Source: an uncultured Candidatus Saccharibacteria bacterium (lineage in GTDB: Bacteria > Patescibacteriota > Saccharimonadia > Saccharimonadales > JBBQAJ01). From it: DNA of 64,000 bases. The notes under the pieces were generated by a model. It was not told where the DNA came from and searched no databases. It was given only the letters and a program-made list of their open reading frames with translations. A program made the position numbers and the translations under genes. The first letter of the stretch is position 1; every line of letters begins with the position of its first letter. The stretch is from contig CAZQHP010000001.1 in the NCBI GenBank assembly GCA_964593805.1, positions 453,283-517,282 on the forward strand, written 5' to 3'. Shown piece by piece: positions 18,220 to 59,229 of this stretch.

Positions 18220-18304
18220 GCGGATGTGGTGGAATTGGTAGACACGCCAGTTTTAGGAACTGGTGCCGTAAGGCGTGAAGGTTCAAGTCCTTTCATCCGC
18301 ACCA
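18220..18304 (+). tRNA. tRNA-Leu (anticodon TAG), CCA encoded
   Basis: The acceptor stem is GCGGATG/CATCCGC. The anticodon stem is CCAGT/ACTGG with loop ttTAGga. It has a long variable arm and a GTTCAAGTC T-loop. Confidence 0.9.
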
Positions 18305-32165: not shown

Positions 32166-34252
32166 TGGCAGCTAAAAAATACGCGCTGGATAAAATTCGG
32201 AACCTGGGGATTATTGCCCATATTGACGCTGGCAAAACTACTACCACCGAAGGCATTTTGTACCGCACCGGGCTGAATTACAAAATTGGCGCTGTACATG
32301 AAGGCGAAACCACCACTGACTGGATGGCACAGGAACGCGAGCGCGGCATCACTATTGTAGCCGCCAGTGTGACGTGTTTCTGGAAAGACCATCAGGTAAA
32401 CATCATAGACACCCCAGGGCACATTGATTTCACCGTGGAAGTAGAACGCTCTTTGCGCGTGCTAGACGGCGCGTGCGTGGTGTTTGACGGCAAAATGGGC
32501 GTGGAATCACAGTCTGAAACCGTGTGGCGCCAGGCCGACAAATACAAAGTGCCTCGTATCTGTTTTATCAACAAAATCAACCAAACCGGCGGCGACTTTT
32601 ACAAATCCTTGGACACCATTCACGCACGTCTCAGCAAACGAGCTTTCCCAGTGCATTTGCCGATAGGATTTGAGCAGTCCATAAACGGCATCGTAGACCT
32701 GGTAGATATGAAAGCCTACACCTACAAAGACTTTACGGACAAAGCGCTGGTAGAAGCCGAAATTCCAGCCGACATGATGGACCAGGTCAAAAAAGCCCGC
32801 AGCTTGCTGATAGAAAACGCTGTGGCTGAAGATGAAGCCATACTAGAAAAATACTTTGAAGTTGGAGAAGAAGGTCTGACTGAATTAGACGTAAAGCAAG
32901 CAATACGTACGGCCGTGCTGTCTGGCAAGTTCTTTGCCGTGACTGGTGGTGATGGCCGCGGCGTGATTGTAGAAAAAGTTCTGGACATGGTAAACGATTA
33001 TCTGCCTAGTCCTGAAGATCGCGGCAGTACCTGGGGCACCCATCCTAAAACCGGCGACGAAATTGAGCGCAAGCCGTCAGAAGCAGAACCATTTTCTTCA
33101 CTGGCATTCAAAATTACCACCGACCCATTTGTGGGCAAACTGGCGTATTTCCGCGTTTATTCTGGCAAACTAGTTGCCGGTTCCTACGTTTTGAACAGCT
33201 CTACCGGCGAAAAAGAGCGAATTGGACGGATTGTGCGCCTGCAAGCAGACAAGCGAACCGATGTAACTGAGGTTGGCGCTGGCGACATCGCCGCCATAGT
33301 GGGGCTCAAAGGCACTACCACCGGCAACACATTGTGCGACCTGAACAATCCCATTGTGCTAGAAAGCATTACCTTCCCAGAACCTCCTGTGTCTATTGCC
33401 ATTGAACCCAAAACCAAAGCCGACCAAGAGAAAATGTCCATTGCCATGCAGCGTTTGGCAGAAGAAGACCCTACTTTCCGTATCCGGGTAGACGATGAAA
33501 CAGCCCAGACCATCATATCTGGCATGGGTGAGCTGCACCTAGAAATCATTGTGGACCGCATGAAGCGCGAATTTGGCGTGGAAGCAAACATTGGCGCCCC
33601 ACAGGTGGCTTACCGAGAAACCATTCGCAAAGATGGCGTGGAAGCCCAGGGCAAGTTCATCCGCCAGTCCGGCGGACGTGGCCAATACGGCGACGTCTGG
33701 CTGCGCCTGAGCCAAAACGAACAAGGCAAAGGCTTTGAATTCATCAACTCCATTAAAGGCGGCGTAGTTCCCAGCGAATACATCAAGCCGGTAGAACAAG
33801 GCATCATAGAGGCGCTCAACAACGGCGTGCTCGCCGGCTACCCAGTGGTAGACGTCAAAGCTGAACTGTACGATGGCAGTTATCACGATGTTGACAGTAG
33901 CGAAATGGCCTTCAAAATCGCCGGCTCTATGGCCGTTCAGGCCGGTGTGAAACTGGCAAAACCAGTAATACTTGAACCAATCATGAAAGTAGTGGTTGTC
34001 ACGCCAGAAGATTTCATGGGTGAAGTCATAGGCGATTTGAACGCCAAACGCGGCCGGATTGAGTCTATGGAAGACCTGAGCGCGGGCATCAAAGAAATCA
34101 CGGCATTTGTGCCACTTGGCGAAATGTTTGGTTACACCACCAACTTACGCAGCAGCACCCAGGGCCGAGCCAGCTCCAGCATGGAACTAGACCACTACCA
34201 GGACGTCCCCACTAACGTAGCCGAAGCCATAATCGCCAAAAACGCCAAATAA
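32165..34252 (+). CDS. fusA: Elongation factor G
   Basis: 695 aa. Has AHIDAGKTT, DTPGHIDF and NKINQ-type (NKxD-like) motifs, plus domains II-V. Confidence 0.97.
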   Translation: MAAKKYALDKIRNLGIIAHIDAGKTTTTEGILYRTGLNYKIGAVHEGETTTDWMAQERERGITIVAASVTCFWKDHQVNIIDTPGHIDFTVEVERSLRVLDGACVVFDGKMGVESQSETVWRQADKYKVPRICFINKINQTGGDFYKSLDTIHARLSKRAFPVHLPIGFEQSINGIVDLVDMKAYTYKDFTDKALVEAEIPADMMDQVKKARSLLIENAVAEDEAILEKYFEVGEEGLTELDVKQAIRTAVLSGKFFAVTGGDGRGVIVEKVLDMVNDYLPSPEDRGSTWGTHPKTGDEIERKPSEAEPFSSLAFKITTDPFVGKLAYFRVYSGKLVAGSYVLNSSTGEKERIGRIVRLQADKRTDVTEVGAGDIAAIVGLKGTTTGNTLCDLNNPIVLESITFPEPPVSIAIEPKTKADQEKMSIAMQRLAEEDPTFRIRVDDETAQTIISGMGELHLEIIVDRMKREFGVEANIGAPQVAYRETIRKDGVEAQGKFIRQSGGRGQYGDVWLRLSQNEQGKGFEFINSIKGGVVPSEYIKPVEQGIIEALNNGVLAGYPVVDVKAELYDGSYHDVDSSEMAFKIAGSMAVQAGVKLAKPVILEPIMKVVVVTPEDFMGEVIGDLNAKRGRIESMEDLSAGIKEITAFVPLGEMFGYTTNLRSSTQGRASSSMELDHYQDVPTNVAEAIIAKNAK

Positions 34253-34275
34253 TTCATAGGGTGGGCGGAGGTTTT

Positions 34276-34851
34276 ATGTCCACCCCAGCAGCGAATGTAG
34301 CCGAAACCCTCAAATACCTTGCTAGCGTAGTTCAGTCCCCAGAGGCTATTGATAACGCAGCGCATAAAGGCTACATAGATGATCATAATCTTGTTATGAC
34401 CTCTATGGGTAATCAACACAGGGCCATGTTCACTCCCTACTATAGCGGTATCCCATTCGAGCCTGCTCTTGCTTATCGACTGGAAATGGCTCGGGCTCAT
34501 AGACGTCCTTTCGCAGAGGCTATTCTCAGCCATTCTAGAAGGAGACAAATGGCAGCAGTGACACTTCGGCTGGCGCTCAATCCTGAAGTTACGGATGTGC
34601 TAGAAACGGCCTGGATTTACTCATTAGAGGAGTCAACTAAGCTTACCGAAACTACTTGGGATGTTGTTGACCGCGTAAACGAGTGTGCGCAGACAGGCTC
34701 TGCAATTGAAGCAAGGAGCGGACTTGTTGTAATTACGCCTGATCGTGCCAAAGCTCATAACTGGGCTCTCTCTGAATCTATCGGTTCAGCAGAAGCTGTA
34801 TGTATTATCCAACAAAAAATAACCGGTGAGCTTCCATTTGAAATACTTTAG
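34276..34851 (+). CDS. Hypothetical protein inserted between fusA and tuf
   Basis: 191 aa from ATG 34276, with SD GGAGG at 34268-34272; the ORF track starts at GTG 34261. It uses atypical codons (AGA, AGG, CTA, TCT). Confidence 0.5.
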   Translation: MSTPAANVAETLKYLASVVQSPEAIDNAAHKGYIDDHNLVMTSMGNQHRAMFTPYYSGIPFEPALAYRLEMARAHRRPFAEAILSHSRRRQMAAVTLRLALNPEVTDVLETAWIYSLEESTKLTETTWDVVDRVNECAQTGSAIEARSGLVVITPDRAKAHNWALSESIGSAEAVCIIQQKITGELPFEIL

Positions 34852-34957
34852 TCTACCTCTTTACAAACCTCTTAAGATAAGCTAATATATTTTGGTAACT
34901 CGTGTGGGTTTATTCAACTCATGCAAAATTATTACTAAAGTTATAGGAGTAATCTCA

Positions 34958-36139
34958 ATGGCAGATTTTGACAGAAGCAAGCCGCACGTAAACGTTGGTA
35001 CTATGGGACACGTTGACCACGGCAAAACCACGCTAACCGCAGCTATTACGGCAGTACTTGCCAAAAAGCTTCCCAGCGACGTGAACAAAGCTATCAAATA
35101 CGATGAAATTGACAACGCGCCAGAAGAAAAAGCCCGTGGTATTACCATCGCGACTTCCCACCAGGAATACGAATCAGAAAAGCGCCACTACGCTCACGTG
35201 GACATGCCAGGACACGCTGACTATGTAAAGAACATGATTACCGGCGCCGCTCAGATTGACGGTGCTATTTTGGTAGTAGGCGCCAATGACGGCCCACTGC
35301 CACAGACTCGTGAACACGTGCTACTTGCCAAACAAGTGGGCGTGCCAAAGATTTTGGTTTTCATGAACAAAATGGACCTAGCGGACCCAGAACTGATTGA
35401 ACTAGTAGAAATGGACATTCGTGAGCTGTTGGCCAAAAACGGCTATGACGAAGACGCACCAATTGTCAAAGGCTCGGCTACCAAAGCTCTCGCCGGCGAC
35501 GCAGCCAGCGAGGACGCTATCATGGAGCTGGTTAAGGCCATGGATGATTTCATCCCAGAGCCAAAGCGCGAACTAGACAAACCATTCCTGATGCCTATAG
35601 AAGACGTGTTCTCTATCAAAGGCCGCGGCACAGTAGCTACCGGCCGTGTGGAAACCGGAATTGTGAAAGTCAATGAAGAAGTCGAAATTGTCGGCATCCG
35701 TCCTACTAAAAAAGTCGTGGTAACCGGCGTAGAAATGTTCAAAAAGAACCTTGACCAAGGCCAAGCTGGCGACAATGTAGGCGTGCTACTTCGCGGTATT
35801 GAGCGCGATGACATTGAGCGCGGCCAGGTGCTTTGCAAACCAGGCAGCATCACACCTCATACCGAATTTGACGCTGAAGTTTACATCCTCACCAAAGAAG
35901 AAGGCGGCCGTCACACACCGTTTTTCAAAGGTTACAAACCACAGTTTTACTTCCGTACCACGGACGTAACCGGTGAAGTTGAACTCCCAGCCGACAAAGA
36001 AATGGTCATGCCAGGCGACACCGTAACTTTCAAAGTTAAACTGCTGGCTCCAATTGCCATGGAACAAGGCCTCCGCTTCGCTATCCGCGAAGGCGGCCGA
36101 ACCGTCGGCGCTGGTGTTGTTACCAAAATCAACAAATAA
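34958..36139 (+). CDS. tuf: Elongation factor Tu
   Basis: 393 aa from ATG 34958, with SD AGGAG. Has [17 protein letters not shown] and NKMD. Confidence 0.97.
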
Positions 36140-36160
36140 TTCGAACTTCGAATTAGTTAA

Positions 36161-36193
36161 AGAGCTCCGAGAAACCGGAGCTCTTTTATATTT
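36161..36193 (+). terminator. Intrinsic terminator after tuf
   Basis: AGAGCTCCG-agaaac-CGGAGCTCT followed by TTTaTaTTT. Confidence 0.75.
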
Positions 36194-36204
36194 ATAGTCT
36201 CTAC

Positions 36205-36213
36205 TGTTAGAAT
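36205..36213 (+). promoter_or_regulatory. Extended -10 promoter (TGtTAGAAT), 7 nt before the ATG at 36221
   Basis: acTGtTAGAATtatcagcATG. This is the same 9-mer as the rpmG promoter at 58864. Confidence 0.5.
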
Positions 36214-36220
36214 TATCAGC

Positions 36221-36415
36221 ATGGACGAAGTTGACCCAGCCTTTATGTTGAGAAGAATAGACGATATGCCCAACGAATTCGTTCTAGAACTCTTTACGAA
36301 TTGGGTGAGAGGCAAGCTTGATCTAACGGCTGCCCAGGCAGACGTAGTAACGGTTGAAGTTGATCTGCGCTTCGATCAAGCAATAAACGTTACGGCTAGT
36401 CCTGACCCAGCTTGA
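36221..36415 (+). CDS. Hypothetical small acidic protein between tuf and rpsJ
   Basis: 64 aa. It has its own extended -10 promoter and no SD. Confidence 0.4.
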   Translation: MDEVDPAFMLRRIDDMPNEFVLELFTNWVRGKLDLTAAQADVVTVEVDLRFDQAINVTASPDPA

Positions 36416-36551
36416 TGTTCTTGCAGTCGTCAAACTTCCCAAATTACGAATAATGTTGTAGAATCAATCAGTAAAATAATGGTGATGACTAAAAGTCACT
36501 GCGAGCGCTCTATATAGCGCCACAGGGATGTTACATCACAAGGAGACATAT

Positions 36552-37058
36552 ATGGCGGAGGCCAAGAAGAAGGTAGAAAGTAGCAAGCAGAAAGTAGCAA
36601 GCAAAGCTACAAAAACCAACCCAAAGAAGCCAAAGGCAGAAAAGCCGGTTCAAGCACCAGCAGAGGCTGTAGCAGAGCCAGTGGCGGAAACCAAACCTAC
36701 GGTTATGGTCGCAAAACCCGCTAAGCAAACTCACGGTAAAACAGAGCCAGCAGCCAAACAGCGCATCCGGATTCGTCTGAAGGCTTATGACCACAAAGTT
36801 ATAGACCAGTCTACCAAACAGATTGTAGACGTAGCACTGCGTACCGGCGCCACAATTGCCGGGCCAATCCCGCTGCCAACCAAAAAGACTACTTACACCG
36901 TGGTCAAAAGCCCTCATGTGTTCAAAAAGGGCCGTGAGCAGTTTGAAATGCGCGTCCACAAACGCCTAATAGATGTTTTCGACCCAACCCCCAAGACAAT
37001 TGACTCACTAATGAACCTCTCACTACCAGCAGGTTGTGATGCAGAGATTAAAATGTAA
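36552..37058 (+). CDS. rpsJ: 30S ribosomal protein S10 with a ~65-aa K/A/P-rich N-terminal extension
   Basis: ATG at 36552 follows AGGAG at 36541. The S10 core begins at [13 protein letters not shown]. The extension contains a 14-nt tandem duplication. Confidence 0.9.
36576..36603 (+). repeat. 14-nt tandem duplication inside the S10 N-terminal extension
   Basis: GAAAGTAGCAAGCA occurs twice. That is 2 x 14 nt, not a multiple of 3. Confidence 0.8.
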
Positions 37059-37147
37059 CAGGCTGCGATCCTCCTACGCCGAGGCTTCGGAGGACAGGCG
37101 CCGAAATCAAAATGTAGCAATTAACGTGGTGGGCAACAGGAGCTATT

Positions 37148-37564
37148 ATGGCAAACGCTTTTCCCGAAGGAACACCAACTGACACAGAGTTCACGGAAGA
37201 AGTTTTGGCGGGTGTGGGCGAAGCTGATTCTTTCCTATTTACCGAATTGCTTGCAATTGCGCTCGAAAGTCAACAAGACGAACAAACCGACGATGATCTG
37301 ACAGAAGCCCAGCGTGAGCAAGAGGCTTGGGCTGAACTGGTTGAGATAGCCGAAATGCCAGAACGCGAACAAAGAATGCATGTTTTGAAAAAACAACTCG
37401 TGGCCGGCATTGAATTTGATACAACCATGTTTGGCGTACCCGTACTCGTAACCCCAATCGATGACATACCACCACCAATGCCACCATTTGAGCCTGACAG
37501 TGAACCACTCCAGCCCATACCAACACCTCCTAGTTTGCAACCCCACGTAGATGCGAGCATATGA
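37148..37564 (+). CDS. Hypothetical acidic, Pro-rich protein
   Basis: 138 aa with SD AGGAG upstream. ATGA overlap with the next gene. Confidence 0.5.
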   Translation: MANAFPEGTPTDTEFTEEVLAGVGEADSFLFTELLAIALESQQDEQTDDDLTEAQREQEAWAELVEIAEMPEREQRMHVLKKQLVAGIEFDTTMFGVPVLVTPIDDIPPPMPPFEPDSEPLQPIPTPPSLQPHVDASI

Positions 37565-38031
37565 AACGGTTTGTTATTCGGCATGGGCATACTGGGGTTA
37601 CGCGAGATGGACGGGCTGCGTTTGGCGCGGCTGGGCCGCCACTGAGTAAGTTGGGGCAAAAGCAGGCTGCCGAGCTCAAACAAGCTTTGCTGAAGCTGGG
37701 AGTAAACTTTGACACAGAGCCGGTGGCTGTGTCTGAGTTTTTGCGGACCAAGCAAACCGCTCAGCTAGCAGGCTTTCAGAACTTGCACGTAAGTCCAGTG
37801 CTGAACGAAATTTTTACCGGCATGCCGGGCGCGGAACTCAAAGCCTTGCTTGAGCTCAGGCAGCTTCCACCAATAGTTATACAAAAGGCGCGGGCAATTC
37901 TGGACAATCCGCCCAAAGAACGGGTTTGGATAACGCACGGTTTGGTGATTATGGGGCTGCGTGAAGTATTGGGCGTAAAAAGCGATCCGTTTGATCCTTT
38001 GCACTGCAGTATTCTTGAGGTAGATGGCTAG
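37561..38031 (+). CDS. Histidine phosphatase family protein (SixA/PGAM-like)
   Basis: 156 aa. Has the N-terminal RHG motif (FVIRHGHTG) and a distal H (ITHGLV). Confidence 0.7.
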   Translation: MKRFVIRHGHTGVTRDGRAAFGAAGPPLSKLGQKQAAELKQALLKLGVNFDTEPVAVSEFLRTKQTAQLAGFQNLHVSPVLNEIFTGMPGAELKALLELRQLPPIVIQKARAILDNPPKERVWITHGLVIMGLREVLGVKSDPFDPLHCSILEVDG

Positions 38032-38058
38032 CAACTCCTTGCATAAAGTGGCGAAAAG

Positions 38059-38067
38059 TGGTATATT
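38059..38067 (+). promoter_or_regulatory. Extended -10 promoter (TGgTATATT), 10 nt before the ATG at 38078
   Basis: aagTGgTATATTttactaaattATG. No SD is present. Confidence 0.5.
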
Positions 38068-38077
38068 TTACTAAATT

Positions 38078-38518
38078 ATGTCGGATTTTGAGCGCAAAGT
38101 GTCTAATAATCCAGTTGAATATGCCCGGGGTGTTATTTTTTCTGCCCAGAATGAAGTTTTGCTGTTAGAACGAGCCGGCGAACATAGCACTGGCTTGTGG
38201 GAGTGTCCCGGTGACGTACTAGATCTTGGAGAATCATTTGAAATGGCACGCTACCGCGCAATCTACGAAAAAACCGGTTTAGAAGTAATCCGTTTCCCAT
38301 CGCCTCAACCCGACTTTGTAATTGAGTACGGTCAGCGCCGGACAGAGTTCAGCCTTGTGCGAGTGTTTGGCGGAGAGCTTAGGCTGAACCCCCAAGAAAA
38401 CTCCGGATACATTTATGCCGATCCCCGAACAGTTCTGGATCGTGATTTAGCACCAGATACTCAAGCGGCGCTTAAATACTACGCCCCATCATTTCAGCAG
38501 CTAAAACCTCTCGAATAA
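38078..38518 (+). CDS. NUDIX-family hydrolase with a degenerate Nudix box
   Basis: 146 aa. GDVLDLGESFEMARYRAIYEKTGL aligns to Gx5Ex7REUxEExGU, but RE is replaced by RA and EE by EK. Confidence 0.7.
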   Translation: MSDFERKVSNNPVEYARGVIFSAQNEVLLLERAGEHSTGLWECPGDVLDLGESFEMARYRAIYEKTGLEVIRFPSPQPDFVIEYGQRRTEFSLVRVFGGELRLNPQENSGYIYADPRTVLDRDLAPDTQAALKYYAPSFQQLKPLE

Positions 38519-38600
38519 TTACCTAAAAATAAGTTGCTACCAAATTGGTTATACTTGCGCTACAATCAACTTGTATAGTTAATGAGGCTTATAAAAACAC

Positions 38601-38999
38601 ATGACAGAAATTGCACGGGTGCCTGCTGAGCGGATGTCCGTTTGCGAGCTGCGTGAATTGTTTGCACATGTGCAGGGCGAAGGTGCGCAGCCGTTTGGCG
38701 ATGAGCTTGCTCTGGAGCTGGGCCGCCCCGAAGCGGTGGCTTGCACAACCCAAGAGCCAGGCTATCCGTGGTATGGTAATTTTTTGCTTCAGCTTTGCAG
38801 CGACTCCGAAGTAGTTAAATTTACTCGCCTCAAGCCCGACCGGCGACAAGGTTTTTTGATTGATAGGTTTCAGCAAGAGCCAGGGCGTGTGGGCGGGGAC
38901 GTCTTGCGAATAGGTAGCCGGGCGCTGATTTTGTGCCCGCAGACGCTGGACGCAACAATCAATAGAACATTGCCAGTCACAAGCATCCGCTACATATGA
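38601..38999 (+). CDS. Hypothetical protein
   Basis: 132-aa ORF. I recognise no motif. Confidence 0.4.
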   Translation: MTEIARVPAERMSVCELRELFAHVQGEGAQPFGDELALELGRPEAVACTTQEPGYPWYGNFLLQLCSDSEVVKFTRLKPDRRQGFLIDRFQQEPGRVGGDVLRIGSRALILCPQTLDATINRTLPVTSIRYI

Positions 39000-39045
39000 G
39001 ATTGGTTAGTTTGCATAAGCGGAATGAATCCTGTTCAATGTAGCC

Positions 39046-39318
39046 ATGGCCAAACAAAAAACCCCAGCGCAGGAACTTGACGGCGTGTACATACTCAAAA
39101 TTGTTTTGTATCTGATAATTGGCGCGCAGTGGGTCAGGCTGGTAGATCCCGCCCTGACCAAACAGATACCTTTGCCGCTAGGCCTGGTTGTAGGAGCTAT
39201 GTTTGCCATGCATGAACATTTCCAAATTGACCGCAAGATTGAATTCGCTATCCTGCTCATAGCCTGCTTTGTAGGCTTCTGGTCGCAAACCGGGCTGCTT
39301 ATAGCAATCCTCAATTAG
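39046..39318 (+). CDS. Hypothetical small membrane protein
   Basis: 90 aa with three hydrophobic segments. Confidence 0.45.
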   Translation: MAKQKTPAQELDGVYILKIVLYLIIGAQWVRLVDPALTKQIPLPLGLVVGAMFAMHEHFQIDRKIEFAILLIACFVGFWSQTGLLIAILN

Positions 39319-39345
39319 GTAACTGATTGTAGTATTTGCAACACC

Positions 39346-39375
39346 TTGACAGAGAAGCCGGCCACATGGTAATCT
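39346..39375 (+). promoter_or_regulatory. Promoter for the rplC-led ribosomal operon
   Basis: TTGACA (39346-39351), 18-nt spacer, TGgTAATCT. Confidence 0.5.
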
Positions 39376-39404
39376 GTTATGGTCTCCAAATTGATTTCTT
39401 GGTC

Positions 39405-39474
39405 TATTGGCAAGGTTCGCTACCAATAACAGGGGCGAAAACCAGCAGTGACCAAGCATTTTTATGTTTCGCCC
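39405..39474 (+). promoter_or_regulatory. Structured leader upstream of rplC (two hairpins)
   Basis: The stems are TATTGG/CCAATA (39405-39428) and GGGCGAAA/TTTCGCCC (39433-39474). Confidence 0.45.
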
Positions 39475-39526
39475 TCATTAGGTAGGTGCGAAAAGAGTTA
39501 ATAAACGGTAAAGGTTTTAGTTACAA

Positions 39527-40141
39527 GTGAAAGCATTTATTACCAGAAAAGTCGGTATGACCAGCGCCATCGCGGAAGATGGTGTTATGCAGGCTGTGAC
39601 TTTGCTTTCCGCTTCGCCAAACACAGTGACGCAGATAAAGAATGATGAAACAGACGGTTATGTGGCAATCCAAATGGGCATGGGAACCGCAAAAAAGATG
39701 GGCAAGTCGCTGGCAGGGCATTTCAAACTCTCAAAGGCTCAGCCCAAGGTCTCTCGTGAATTCCGCATTACAGAAGCCCCCGAAGACCTAAGCGTCGGCT
39801 CGCAACTCGCAGCCGACGTTTTTAGTGTGGGCGATGTTGTGCACATAACCGCAACCAGCAAGGGCAAGGGCTGGGCCGGAACAATAAAGCGCCACAACTT
39901 TAACACCGGGCGCAAAACGCATGGTGGCGGTTCCTACCGGCGCCCCGGTTCTATTGGTTCCATGTATCCCCAGAAGATTTTCAAAGGTAAAAAGATGGCC
40001 GGGCAAATGGGCGACGAACAAGTTACCGTACGCAATCTCAAAGTTGCATTAGTAGATATGGAACTCGGAGTGATTGGCGTGACCGGTGCCGTGCCGGGAC
40101 CACGAAAAGGTATTGTCTTGGTCAGAGGAGCTAAACCATGA
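39527..40141 (+). CDS. rplC: 50S ribosomal protein L3
   Basis: 204 aa with a GTG start. Has KVGMT..., and GKGWAGTIKRHNF is the L3 signature. Confidence 0.95.
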   Translation: MKAFITRKVGMTSAIAEDGVMQAVTLLSASPNTVTQIKNDETDGYVAIQMGMGTAKKMGKSLAGHFKLSKAQPKVSREFRITEAPEDLSVGSQLAADVFSVGDVVHITATSKGKGWAGTIKRHNFNTGRKTHGGGSYRRPGSIGSMYPQKIFKGKKMAGQMGDEQVTVRNLKVALVDMELGVIGVTGAVPGPRKGIVLVRGAKP

Positions 40142-40788
40142 GCATAGCTACTTACACCAAAACAGGAACAAAAGCCACAACACCGGCCAAGCTGGATAAA
40201 TCAGTATTTGGCGTAGTGCCCGAAAGTCACGAACTGCTTAAATCAGCCTATGTTGCCTACTTAGCCAATGGACGTACAAGTGCCGGCAACACAAAAACTC
40301 GTGGTTTAGTCCGCGGCGGCGGCCGCAAGCCCTGGAAGCAAAAAGGCACCGGACGGGCTCGTTTTGGTTCATCCAGAAACCCTATCTGGCGTGGTGGAGG
40401 AATTGTATTTGGCCCAACCGGCGAAGAAAACTATAGCCACAAAATGCACACCAACGCTAAACGCCAGGCTACCCGCCAAGCACTAAGCGTGGCATCAGCA
40501 GAAAACAAACTGATTATTATTGAAACATTTGAATGCAAAGACGGCAAAGTTGCTCCAACTATCAAGTTGCTGGACAAAATCGGAGCTAAGGGCAATGTTT
40601 TGCTGGCCGTTAGCTTGAAGGACGAACTAGTTGAACGCGCAACGCGCAATTTGCCTAATATCAAGGTTGTTCAGGCGAAATACTTGAACGTTTATGACCT
40701 TATGAATGCTGACAGTGTTGTTATGAGCAAGAAAGCCTTAGATATCGTTACTGAGTGGTTAGCTCCTGTTAAAAAGGAGACAAAGTAA
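40138..40788 (+). CDS. rplD: 50S ribosomal protein L4
   Basis: 216 aa. Has GGGRKPWKQKGTGRAR. ATGA overlap with rplC. Confidence 0.95.
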   Translation: MSIATYTKTGTKATTPAKLDKSVFGVVPESHELLKSAYVAYLANGRTSAGNTKTRGLVRGGGRKPWKQKGTGRARFGSSRNPIWRGGGIVFGPTGEENYSHKMHTNAKRQATRQALSVASAENKLIIIETFECKDGKVAPTIKLLDKIGAKGNVLLAVSLKDELVERATRNLPNIKVVQAKYLNVYDLMNADSVVMSKKALDIVTEWLAPVKKETK

Positions 40789-41126
40789 TGGATAAGTCTA
40801 TGGTTTTGAAACCGCGTATAAGTGAAAAAGCCTACGCACTTAGCCAATCCATGAATGTCTACGTTATGCAGGTTCCTGCCGACGCCAACCGCTTGAGCGT
40901 GGCTGGTGCTGTTACCGCGCAATTCGGCGTGACTGTAACAAAAGTCAACATTGCCAACGCCAAGGGCAAGCTAAAGCGCACCGTCCGCAAAGGCGGTCGC
41001 CAGACGTTTGGCAAGCGTCCTGATACCAAGAAGGCTTACGTGACTCTAAAGGCCGGCGATAGCATCGCTGTTTTTGCCAACGAAGAAGACACCAAAAAAG
41101 AGATCGCCAAGGGGAAGAAAAAATGA
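40788..41126 (+). CDS. rplW: 50S ribosomal protein L23
   Basis: 112 aa. Called by position and the KPRISEKA N-terminus. Confidence 0.9.
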   Translation: MDKSMVLKPRISEKAYALSQSMNVYVMQVPADANRLSVAGAVTAQFGVTVTKVNIANAKGKLKRTVRKGGRQTFGKRPDTKKAYVTLKAGDSIAVFANEEDTKKEIAKGKKK

Positions 41127-58587: not shown

Positions 58588-58664
58588 GCCACCTTAGCTC
58601 AGCTGGTTAGAGCGACTGTTTTGTAAACAGTAGGTCGTCGGTTCGAATCCGACAGGTGGCTCCA
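58588..58664 (+). tRNA. tRNA-Thr (anticodon TGT), CCA encoded
   Basis: The acceptor stem is GCCACCT/AGGTGGC. The anticodon stem is ACTGT/ACAGT with loop ttTGTaa. Confidence 0.9.
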
Positions 58665-58665
58665 T

Positions 58666-58751
58666 GCAGGGTTAGTGAAGCGGTCAAACACGGCAGACTG
58701 TAAATCTGCTGGCTTATGCCTTCGTAGGTTCGAATCCTACACCCTGCACCA
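58666..58751 (+). tRNA. tRNA-Tyr (anticodon GTA), long variable arm, CCA encoded
   Basis: The acceptor stem is GCAGGGT/ACCCTGC. The anticodon stem is GCAGA/TCTGC with loop ctGTAaa. Confidence 0.9.
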
Positions 58752-58765
58752 TTTTTGTATTTTTT

Positions 58766-58840
58766 GCCGTCGTAGCTCAGTGGTAGAGCATCGCCATGGT
58801 AAGGCGGGGGTCAGGAGTTCAAATCTCCTCGACGGCTCCA
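58766..58840 (+). tRNA. tRNA-Thr (anticodon GGT), CCA encoded
   Basis: The acceptor stem is GCCGTCG/CGACGGC. The anticodon loop is atGGTaa. Confidence 0.88.
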
Positions 58841-58863
58841 GTATTGCAAACCTAGCTCACATC

Positions 58864-58872
58864 TGTTAGAAT
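58864..58872 (+). promoter_or_regulatory. Extended -10 promoter of rpmG (TGtTAGAAT), 10 nt before the ATG
   Basis: tcTGtTAGAATcaattctcatATG. No SD is present. Confidence 0.5.
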
Positions 58873-58882
58873 CAATTCTCAT

Positions 58883-59086
58883 ATGGCAAAAAAAGGCGGA
58901 AAACGTAAGATTGTAGGTTTGGTGTCCGAAGAAAGCGGCCACCGGCATTATTACACTCGCAAAAACGCGCAAAACACTCCTGACAAACTGGAACTGAAAA
59001 AATACGACCCGGTCCTACGCAAGCACGTTTTGTACGTGGAAACTAAAAAATCTCTGGGTCGCAACGAAGTTAAAAAGAAAAAATAA
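58883..59086 (+). CDS. rpmG: 50S ribosomal protein L33 (Cys-free form, basic C-terminal tail)
   Basis: 67 aa. Shows the [30 protein letters not shown]33 pattern without a CxxC. Confidence 0.9.
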
Positions 59087-59152
59087 CATCTCATCTCGGT
59101 GACAAAACAAAGTAAATCGGCTATGATTACTCCGTTAGTCGCATATTATTGA

Positions 59153-59229
59153 AGGGGCGTAGCTCAGCTGGTTAGAGCGTTGGTCTCCAAAACCAAAGGC
59201 CGCGGGTTCGAATCCCTCCGCCCCTGCCA
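59153..59229 (+). tRNA. tRNA-Trp (anticodon CCA), CCA encoded
   Basis: The acceptor stem is AGGGGCG/CGCCCCT. The anticodon stem is TTGGT/ACCAA with loop ctCCAaa. Confidence 0.9.

Follow-up and report, generated by a model that had tools for sequence, protein, structure and literature searches.

The S10 operon of Saccharibacteria is probably divided, the interval between rpsJ and rplC forming a lineage-wide cargo slot that is bounded by the promoter and leader of rplC. The analysis concerned a 64,000-nucleotide stretch of DNA from an uncultured Candidatus Saccharibacteria bacterium (TM7, order Saccharimonadales; contig CAZQHP010000001.1), referred to below as the window. In this stretch rpsJ, which encodes ribosomal protein S10 (+ strand, 36552-37058), was separated from rplC, which encodes L3 (+ strand, 39527-40141; GTG start; NCBIfam L3_bact, E-value 8e-65), by 2,468 bp that were filled by five + strand open reading frames (ORFs), designated genes A to E.

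An earlier note on this DNA had described the rpsJ/rplC pair as split by five non-ribosomal genes. The split was real: the gene calls held, and identical sequence was found on three other contigs. The exact gene D sequence was present on a 776,748-bp ENA contig, an 8,770-bp Logan contig (run SRR8863434) and a 1,436-bp ENA contig. All three were 100% identical to the window in their overlap with positions 36001-40200; for two of them this overlap was the full 4,200 bp, and for the third it was the whole 1,436-bp contig. The same note had raised the possibility that the split was unique to this assembly, that is, a misassembly or a chimeric join peculiar to this contig. Such a reading starts from the prior expectation that rpsJ and rplC normally adjoin, and no support for it was found. 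It is contradicted by the complete identity of the three contigs, which came from the ENA and Logan pipelines, and by the loci of relatives, 61 of 66 of which also had more than 300 bp between the two genes. Within the reach of sequence comparison a misassembly is excluded, and we consider its probability negligible.

Contents of the rpsJ-rplC interval

The loci of relatives were anchored on the L3 protein of the window and comprised the 80 closest of 514 genome matches; all 80 best L3 genome matches were Saccharibacteria or Saccharimonadales metagenome-assembled genomes. The distance between rpsJ and rplC, measured in the 66 of these 80 loci in which both genes were found, ranged from 175 to 7,644 bp with a median of 1,224 bp. 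The junctions from rplC through rpmC all had medians between -13 and +26 bp. The rpsJ/rplC split is the rule across Saccharibacteria and is not peculiar to this genome.

Clustering of the ORFs between rpsJ and rplC in 64 loci gave 114 clusters, 94 of which were singletons. When the 80 L3-anchored loci were searched by tblastn, genes A, C and D were found in none of them and gene B was found once (locus L003, 55% identity). Homologues of A and E led to two close relatives, L084 and L085, whose L3 proteins were 93% and 91% identical to that of the window, respectively. The slot of L084 contained A (75% identity), C (51%), D (91%) and E (84%) and lacked B; that of L085 contained B (79%), C (87%) and E (90%) and lacked A and D. 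In L003, gene B was followed by a different, canonical Nudix gene and by E. Loci L001 and L002, with L3 identities of 90-91%, had rpsJ-rplC distances of 546 and 589 bp and carried none of the five genes. No other genome examined had all five, and the suggestion in the earlier note that they travel as a unit was not borne out. On this distribution, genes A to E are best read as an accreted mosaic set and not as a co-inherited functional module.

Between rpsJ and the rplC promoter of L001 (7459-7800) and L002 (7415-7800) lay about 350 bp that were apparently non-coding, with ORFs of only 61-68 amino acids (aa). This stretch may be a deletion scar.

Gene E (39046-39318, + strand) encodes a predicted 90-aa membrane protein with about three hydrophobic helices and no family assignment. 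It was found in about 45 of the 80 L3-anchored loci by tblastn and in 35 loci as an ORF. None of its 313 homologues, 80-115 aa in length, had a Pfam domain; those few that bore an organism name came from Saccharimonadales or Patescibacteria. Among E-anchored metagenome loci with at least 450 nt of downstream sequence, rplC lay downstream of E in 60 of 67, within 400 nt in 42 cases and within 2 kb in all 60. S10 was encoded upstream in most E-anchored loci where the contig reached far enough, and a Nudix gene, of the 148-174-aa family or the isomerase family, lay upstream of E in roughly one quarter to one third of them. This synteny shows that E is locked to the rpsJ-rplC interval as a fixed resident; its absence from L001 and L002 is a secondary loss.

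The columns D12, K18, Y22, G26, W29, P42, P44, G46, G50 and F53 were invariant in the E family, as was the motif H56-x-H58-F59-x-x-D62-R63-K64-I65-E66. The invariant histidines and the D-R-K-I-E run lie between the second and third helices. The motif resembles a site for metal binding or catalysis, and such a site would be unusual in a 90-aa membrane protein. An AlphaFold2 (AF2) model built from 60 sequences had a predicted local distance difference test (pLDDT) score of 82 and consisted of three helices and a short beta hairpin; no meaningful match to the PDB was obtained for E, either by sequence profile or by Foldseek with this model.

The most frequent recurrent cluster among the other gap ORFs was a canonical Nudix protein of 148-174 aa, present in 12 loci and usually encoded directly upstream of E. 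A type-1 isopentenyl diphosphate isomerase recurred in three loci (215 bits, cut-off 127), as did HAD phosphatases, YtxH proteins and GT2 proteins (three loci each). A Pfam census of 104 gap ORFs gave NUDIX 15, HAD 3, YtxH 3, GT2 3 and IlvA 2 together with RidA 2, with Maf, Ham1, CTP synthase, Pup ligase and others found once each. Genes of core metabolism, often on the minus strand, were seen in the slots of L080 (2811-6650), L061 (4561-6457), L072 (2497-4107) and L051 (453-7815); they included threonine dehydratase with RidA and a thiamine pyrophosphate enzyme, CTP synthase, glutamate dehydrogenase, Maf and Ham1.

These data divide two further proposals of the earlier note. The insert as an old insertion holds for E and the adjacent Nudix gene, which are old residents, and fails for A, B and D, which are recent and variable. 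The proposed nucleotide module is not a five-gene unit, and what is left of it is a weak echo in the recurrence of nucleotide-cleaning and phosphatase families (NUDIX 15, HAD 3, Maf 1 and Ham1 1 of the 104 ORFs).

Promoter and leader RNA of rplC

A predicted promoter of rplC (39346-39375, + strand) was conserved in about 75 of the 80 loci. It consists of TTGACA at 39346-39351, an 18-nt spacer and an extended -10 element, TGgTAATCT, at 39367-39375. The 260 nt upstream of rplC shared a larger block that comprised, in order, TGTAGAAT-N3-CAACA, TTGACAG-18-TGnTAATCT, GTTATGGTATATCAAA, a long hairpin and CAT-TTTTATG. The conserved box TGTAG(A/T)AT-N3-CAACA (39328-39343, + strand), which abuts the -35 hexamer and was present in most relatives, could serve as the -10 element of another promoter in tandem or as a site where a (shared) factor binds. 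TGTAGAAT was rejected as a motif of promoters in general, since it was not over-represented (23 matches compared with 34.8 expected).

The leader RNA of rplC extends over 39376-39526 (+ strand), with a covariance-model match at 39376-39474 (80.4 bits, E-value 1.8e-14). Its main feature is a bulged hairpin of about 60 nt followed by a U-tract (39398-39465, + strand): the hairpin occupies 39398-39456 and is followed by CA and by TTTTTAT at 39459-39465. In the window the hairpin is formed by helix P1 (CTTGGTC/GACCAAG), helix P2 (GGT/ACC), a 2-nt AA bulge, helix P3 and an apical loop with UAACAG. When 70 sequences were folded singly, a common architecture of P1, a variable P1b, P2, the bulge and P3 was obtained. 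The consensus of these sequences had a P1 of 7 bp (CUUGGUN/NACCAAG), a P2 of RGU/ACY, a 3'-strand bulge of AA, rarely AU, and a loop that usually contained UAACAG.

The covariance model, built from a plain alignment, was used to scan both strands of 83 sources (1.08 Mb, E-value ≤1), 13 of which were outside the seed. Each of the 83 sources gave exactly one match, which in every case lay just upstream of rplC and on its strand, and nothing else was found at this threshold. Rfam 15 contained no family for the leader when 34000-41000 was searched at an E-value of ≤10 and the whole window at gathering thresholds.

RNAalifold recovered only P1 from a plain MAFFT alignment, in which the inner helices were misaligned; six of the seven P1 pairs had compensatory changes. 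The inner helices were counted on an anchor-based pseudo-alignment that replaced the plain MAFFT alignment. In this pseudo-alignment 90.2% of cells were paired, compared with 78.9 ± 0.6% after shuffling (reached in 0 of 500 shuffles) and 27-46% when the partners were slid by 1-3 columns. Changes on both sides were present in 12 of the 15 modelled leader pairs, and the outer P2 pair (8-29) was G-C in 50 sequences, A-U in 17, G-U in one and unpaired in none. By its compensatory changes and its fixed position (83 of 83) the leader fits a structured cis-regulatory RNA of the ribosomal-protein leader class. The claim of the earlier note that rplC has a promoter of its own, followed by a structured leader, was upheld, both by conservation in all 83 sources and by covariation.

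The sequence GGGCGAAA (39433-39440), on the 3' side of P3 beside the bulge, is perfectly complementary to TTTCGCCC (39467-39474), just past the U-tract. A pairing of the two was dropped as a general feature, being by eye unconserved in most relatives; in the window it would permit an alternative fold in read-through transcripts.

Genes A to D and the surroundings of rpsJ

The genes of the window were compared pairwise with those of L084 and L085. The ratio of nonsynonymous to synonymous substitution rates (dN/dS) was 0.14 for each of A, B and D, 0.13-0.17 for C and 0.075-0.085 for E, with 0.085-0.094 for L3 as the reference. These low values indicate that A to E are all kept by purifying selection, and the view in the earlier note that the inserted ORFs are real genes was confirmed (dN/dS of about 0.08-0.17).

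Gene A (37148-37564, + strand) encodes a protein of 138 aa with an acidic N-terminus and a Pro-rich C-terminus; it belongs to no family and, from this composition, is probably disordered. Its one homologue was P0123 in L084 (75% identity), and gene A is strain-level cargo.

Gene B (37561-38031, + strand; 156 aa) starts within an ATGA that overlaps the stop codon of A. Its product matched Pfam His_Phos_1 (E-value 3.2e-12; 46.9 bits, cut-off 21.7) over profile positions 3-83 of 194, that is, over the N-terminal half only. The catalytic set R7-H8-G9, R62 (in SEFLRTKQT) and H136 (in WITHG) was present and was kept in the orthologues of L085 and L003. By profile score and catalytic residues B is a small histidine phosphatase of branch 1. 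The closest solved structure was the Thermus thermophilus alpha-ribazole-phosphate phosphatase/PGM-like protein (177 aa, E-value 2e-6). None of the equivalog models was reached, with 21 bits against a cut-off of 74.5 for SixA (TIGR00249) and 28-30 bits against 163-250 for CobC. The earlier label of a SixA/PGAM-like histidine phosphatase therefore stands as to the His_Phos_1 signature and catalytic residues; the SixA equivalog score was not reached, and "SixA-like" describes size and fold only.

Gene C (38078-38518, + strand; 146 aa) matched Pfam NUDIX (E-value 3.1e-10; 40.6 bits, cut-off 21.1). Its box region reads G-D-VLDLGE-SFEMARY-R-A-I-Y-E-K-T-G-L and departs from the catalytic consensus GX5EX7REUXEEXGU: the box Gly is replaced by Asp, the Glu of RE by Ala and the second Glu of EE by Lys, so that two of the three box glutamates are lost. 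The orthologue in L085 (87% identity) shares these changes, and that in L084 (51%) has the canonical REIYEE. The earlier description of C as a Nudix protein is thus correct for the fold and has to be qualified for the box, which is degenerate (RAIYEK in place of REUXEE). The near-leaderless promoter that had been assigned to C, TTGCAT-17-TGgTATATT (38039-38067, + strand), with a leader of about 3-5 nt, is plausible when read from the sequence and did not come up in the consensus scan.

Gene D (38601-38999, + strand) encodes 132 aa and belongs to no family. A word-indexed search of 5.8 billion proteins returned only D itself, and a phmmer search of 1.84 billion cluster representatives returned only its own cluster; on these searches D is a true ORFan. 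A copy with 91% identity is present in L084 (2254-2652). The single-sequence AF2 model was uninformative (pLDDT 42). Synonymous divergence (dS) between the window and L084 was 0.33 for D, 1.06-2.05 for S10, A, C and E, and 0.48 for L3. Within this pair of genomes D is 91% and C is 51% identical (dS 0.33 and 2.05, respectively), which indicates a mosaic origin of the slot genes. The contrast suggests that one gene cassette was exchanged within the slot recently.

In L084 and L085 only 8-9 nt separate the stop codon of rpsJ from the start of the first gene of the insert. The sequence scan found no terminator-like site directly 3' of rpsJ, and none between rpsJ and rplC besides the leader hairpin with its U-tract. 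Based on the short gap and the lack of such a site after rpsJ, genes A to E are probably co-expressed with rpsJ by read-through from its promoter.

The rpsJ gene lies within the ORF 36528-37058 (Pfam Ribosomal_S10, E-value 4.8e-35; NCBIfam rpsJ, 8e-45). Its likely start is the ATG at 36552, which is preceded by AAGGAG, and gene callers applied to L081 and L082 gave an rpsJ product of 168 aa. Ahead of the S10 domain, which begins near 36753, the protein is extended at its N-terminus by about 67 residues rich in Lys, Ala and Pro (36552-36752). By tblastn the extension was matched only in the nearest relative, L084, and there only in part; the distance from tuf to rpsJ was as short as 68 bp in other loci, so some relatives lack the extension.

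Upstream of rpsJ, just behind tuf, lies a terminator-like hairpin with a T-run (36159-36186, + strand); its 11-bp stem includes six GC pairs and is followed by TATATTTATA. This site gave weak Rfam matches to terminator-type small RNA models. By its sequence it separates tuf from rpsJ. The scan also identified a promoter-like site for rpsJ, TTCCCA-17-TAGAAT (36436-36464, + strand); its -10 region (36457-36464) is the one place in the 64-kb window where TGTAGAAT occurs exactly. In the cultured Saccharibacterium Nanosynbacter lyticus TM7x the rpsJ promoter is strong and stand-alone and has been used to drive a resistance gene (PMC10633639).

The fusA|tuf and tuf|rpsJ junctions were both loose, with medians of 508 and 574 bp, respectively, and lengths that varied among relatives. 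In the window they hold non-ribosomal ORFs of 196 aa (34261-34851) and 64 aa (36221-36415), respectively, neither of which had a Pfam, NCBIfam, PADLOC or PHROG match. From the varying lengths and the extra ORFs, cargo-slot behaviour extends beyond the rpsJ-rplC interval. Elsewhere in the window, a four-gene tRNA cluster (58588-59226) and an isolated tRNA gene (18220-18301) were present; these five tRNAs were the sole Rfam matches at gathering thresholds over the whole window, and there was no rRNA.

Interpretation and comparison with known systems

In the divided operon that we propose, rpsJ would be a unit of its own, set off by the terminator after tuf and read from its own promoter, and whatever follows it would be transcribed with it. 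The rplC-led block would be served by a dedicated strong promoter and by a conserved leader that ends in a terminator-like hairpin and a U-tract. If rplC is independent of transcription from rpsJ, the slot can gain, lose and swap genes without harm to ribosome synthesis, and a selectively free interval between two extremely conserved homology arms would be expected to show rapid mosaic turnover. The old residents would be E and, in many lineages, the Nudix hydrolase just upstream of E. Turnover may proceed by homologous recombination between the conserved flanks, helped by natural competence: Saccharibacteria are naturally transformable and integrate DNA by homologous recombination (PMC10633639).

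Several points weigh against this model. Read-through from rpsJ into A to E is inferred from sequence, as are the point where the leader transcript starts and its termination at the hairpin, and the protein partner of the leader is a candidate taken from the analogy with Escherichia coli. Nudix, HAD, Maf, Ham1 and histidine-phosphatase genes recur in the slot, which may mean that its content is non-arbitrary. The loci are the 80 closest of 514, which limits the breadth of the survey over all Saccharibacteria and other lineages of the Candidate Phyla Radiation (CPR). Finally, the pseudo-alignment was anchored on motifs and its register was picked for maximal P3 pairing, so that the P3 figures are biased upward; the result for P1, from the plain MAFFT alignment, and the G-C/A-U switch in P2 are independent of that choice.

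Three other explanations were weighed against the divided operon with a cargo slot. Genes A to E might form one nucleotide- or phosphate-signalling module that is co-regulated with translation, as their common strand, tight spacing, ATGA overlap of A and B and lack of a terminator-like site 3' of rpsJ would allow; all five are under purifying selection, the pair of Nudix gene and E recurs widely, and nucleotide-cleaning and phosphatase families recur in the slot. We nevertheless regard the module as improbable. The five genes occur together only in assemblies of this strain, B is missing from L084, A and D from L085 and all five from L001 and L002, and B is accompanied by a different Nudix gene in L003. 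In addition, D is an ORFan, C lacks two of the three Nudix-box glutamates, and neighbouring genes differ six-fold in dS and so have no single history in common. A still more remote explanation, to which we give very little credence, is that the insert arose through integration of a mobile element or of an islet for anti-phage defence at this site. Variable content between conserved core genes is the hallmark of an integration hotspot, and C weakly matched the PADLOC candidate PDC-S07 (a generic Nudix model, 27 bits). That match was the only one obtained with PADLOC for genes A to E and the two junction ORFs, and PHROGs returned for the same set only a generic Nudix and a function-unknown family. 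No integrase or transposase was found, nor was any among the 25 most frequent Pfam families of the relatives' cargo; direct or inverted repeats flanking the window insert were limited to short chance matches, and the insert showed no shift in G+C from its surroundings. The cargo of relatives was of a housekeeping or metabolic kind (Nudix, HAD, IlvA, RidA, CTP synthase, Idi and GT2).

The third alternative concerns the leader and, although unlikely, is the strongest of the three. Its hairpin and U-tract might be a terminator of the rpsJ/cargo unit, or an mRNA-stabilising 5' stem-loop, and not a sensor; it has the look of an intrinsic terminator and is the only terminator-like site between rpsJ and rplC. 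However, the hairpin lies downstream of the conserved rplC promoter and so must act on rplC transcripts too. The G-G-U/A-C-C helix, the AA bulge, A64, A66 and C67 were invariant or nearly so in sequences whose L3 proteins are only 67-75% identical, primary-sequence features that ordinary terminators would not keep, and the position was the same in all 83 sources.

The leader may be an attenuator under autogenous control, to which one of the operon's own proteins binds; the analogy with E. coli makes L4 the candidate, and we assign this proposal somewhat less than an even chance. A broader version is rather doubtful: the leader would be a new, Saccharibacteria-specific attenuator that senses ribosomal (r-) proteins independently of the gammaproteobacterial L4/S10 system, and its emergence would have freed rpsJ; the conserved pair of Nudix protein and E, having settled in the interval afterwards, would be functionally tied to translation. 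The Nudix protein and E might then, for example, provide nucleoside triphosphate pool sanitation or a membrane-associated step in proportion to rpsJ. More speculative still is a variant in which free S10/NusE together with NusB acts on the UAACA-containing leader loop and couples the output of rpsJ to read-through into rplC.

The rpsJ-rplC pair is a textbook case of frozen gene order, and accessory-gene hotspots and r-protein leaders are known classes. Here the frozen order is broken in a lineage of ultra-small epibiotic bacteria. The lineage-wide split with its cargo slot, a leader family absent from Rfam and a membrane-protein family pinned between rpsJ and rplC appear to be new. To our knowledge, no control of r-protein synthesis is known in the CPR/Patescibacteria, and the leader RNA is a concrete candidate for it. 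The HxHF..DRKIE motif of E, together with its strict ribosomal synteny, makes E a priority for genetics, which are now feasible in cultured Saccharibacteria. The slot, naturally permissive and probably highly expressed, could serve as a neutral site for engineering. Annotators should not carry the five genes forward as a functional module at the level of an operon.

Compared with known Nudix hydrolases such as MutT and RppH, C has the fold signature and lacks two of the three box glutamates. Compared with the small histidine phosphatases (SixA, PhoE and CobC-like proteins), B has the His_Phos_1 signature and the catalytic residues and matches no equivalog. Like other accessory-gene hotspots, the slot has conserved flanks and contents that differ even among close relatives. 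In contrast to them, it spans a mere 0.2-7.6 kb within the ribosomal super-operon, shows neither a recombinase nor repeats nor a signature in its composition, and carries mostly housekeeping enzymes instead of defence or mobile genes.

In cyanobacteria, plastids and archaea, rpsJ follows tuf (encoding EF-Tu) apart from the rplC block, in a str-operon arrangement, which shows that rpsJ-rplC adjacency is not universal. The window resembles the cyanobacterial and archaeal str operon in that rpsJ comes after tuf and is uncoupled from the rplC-led block. It differs in the putative terminator (36159-36186) and promoter (36436-36464) sites between tuf and rpsJ, which suggest that rpsJ is not simply the last gene of a str operon, and in that rplC stays near rpsJ, across a variable cargo slot.

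In the S10 leader of E. coli, L4 together with NusA causes termination at a hairpin and U-run (PMC3616713, PMC10931766), and this element is confined to Gammaproteobacteria (PMC3616713). The window leader is likewise a structured 5' leader of an rplC/rplD operon with a hairpin and a U-run, rplD being here the second gene downstream. The E. coli leader precedes rpsJ, has five hairpins and is of the HA-HG architecture, whereas the window leader precedes rplC and has a single long bulged hairpin. Placed after rpsJ, of a different architecture and with no Rfam match, the leader of Saccharibacteria would represent an independent solution.

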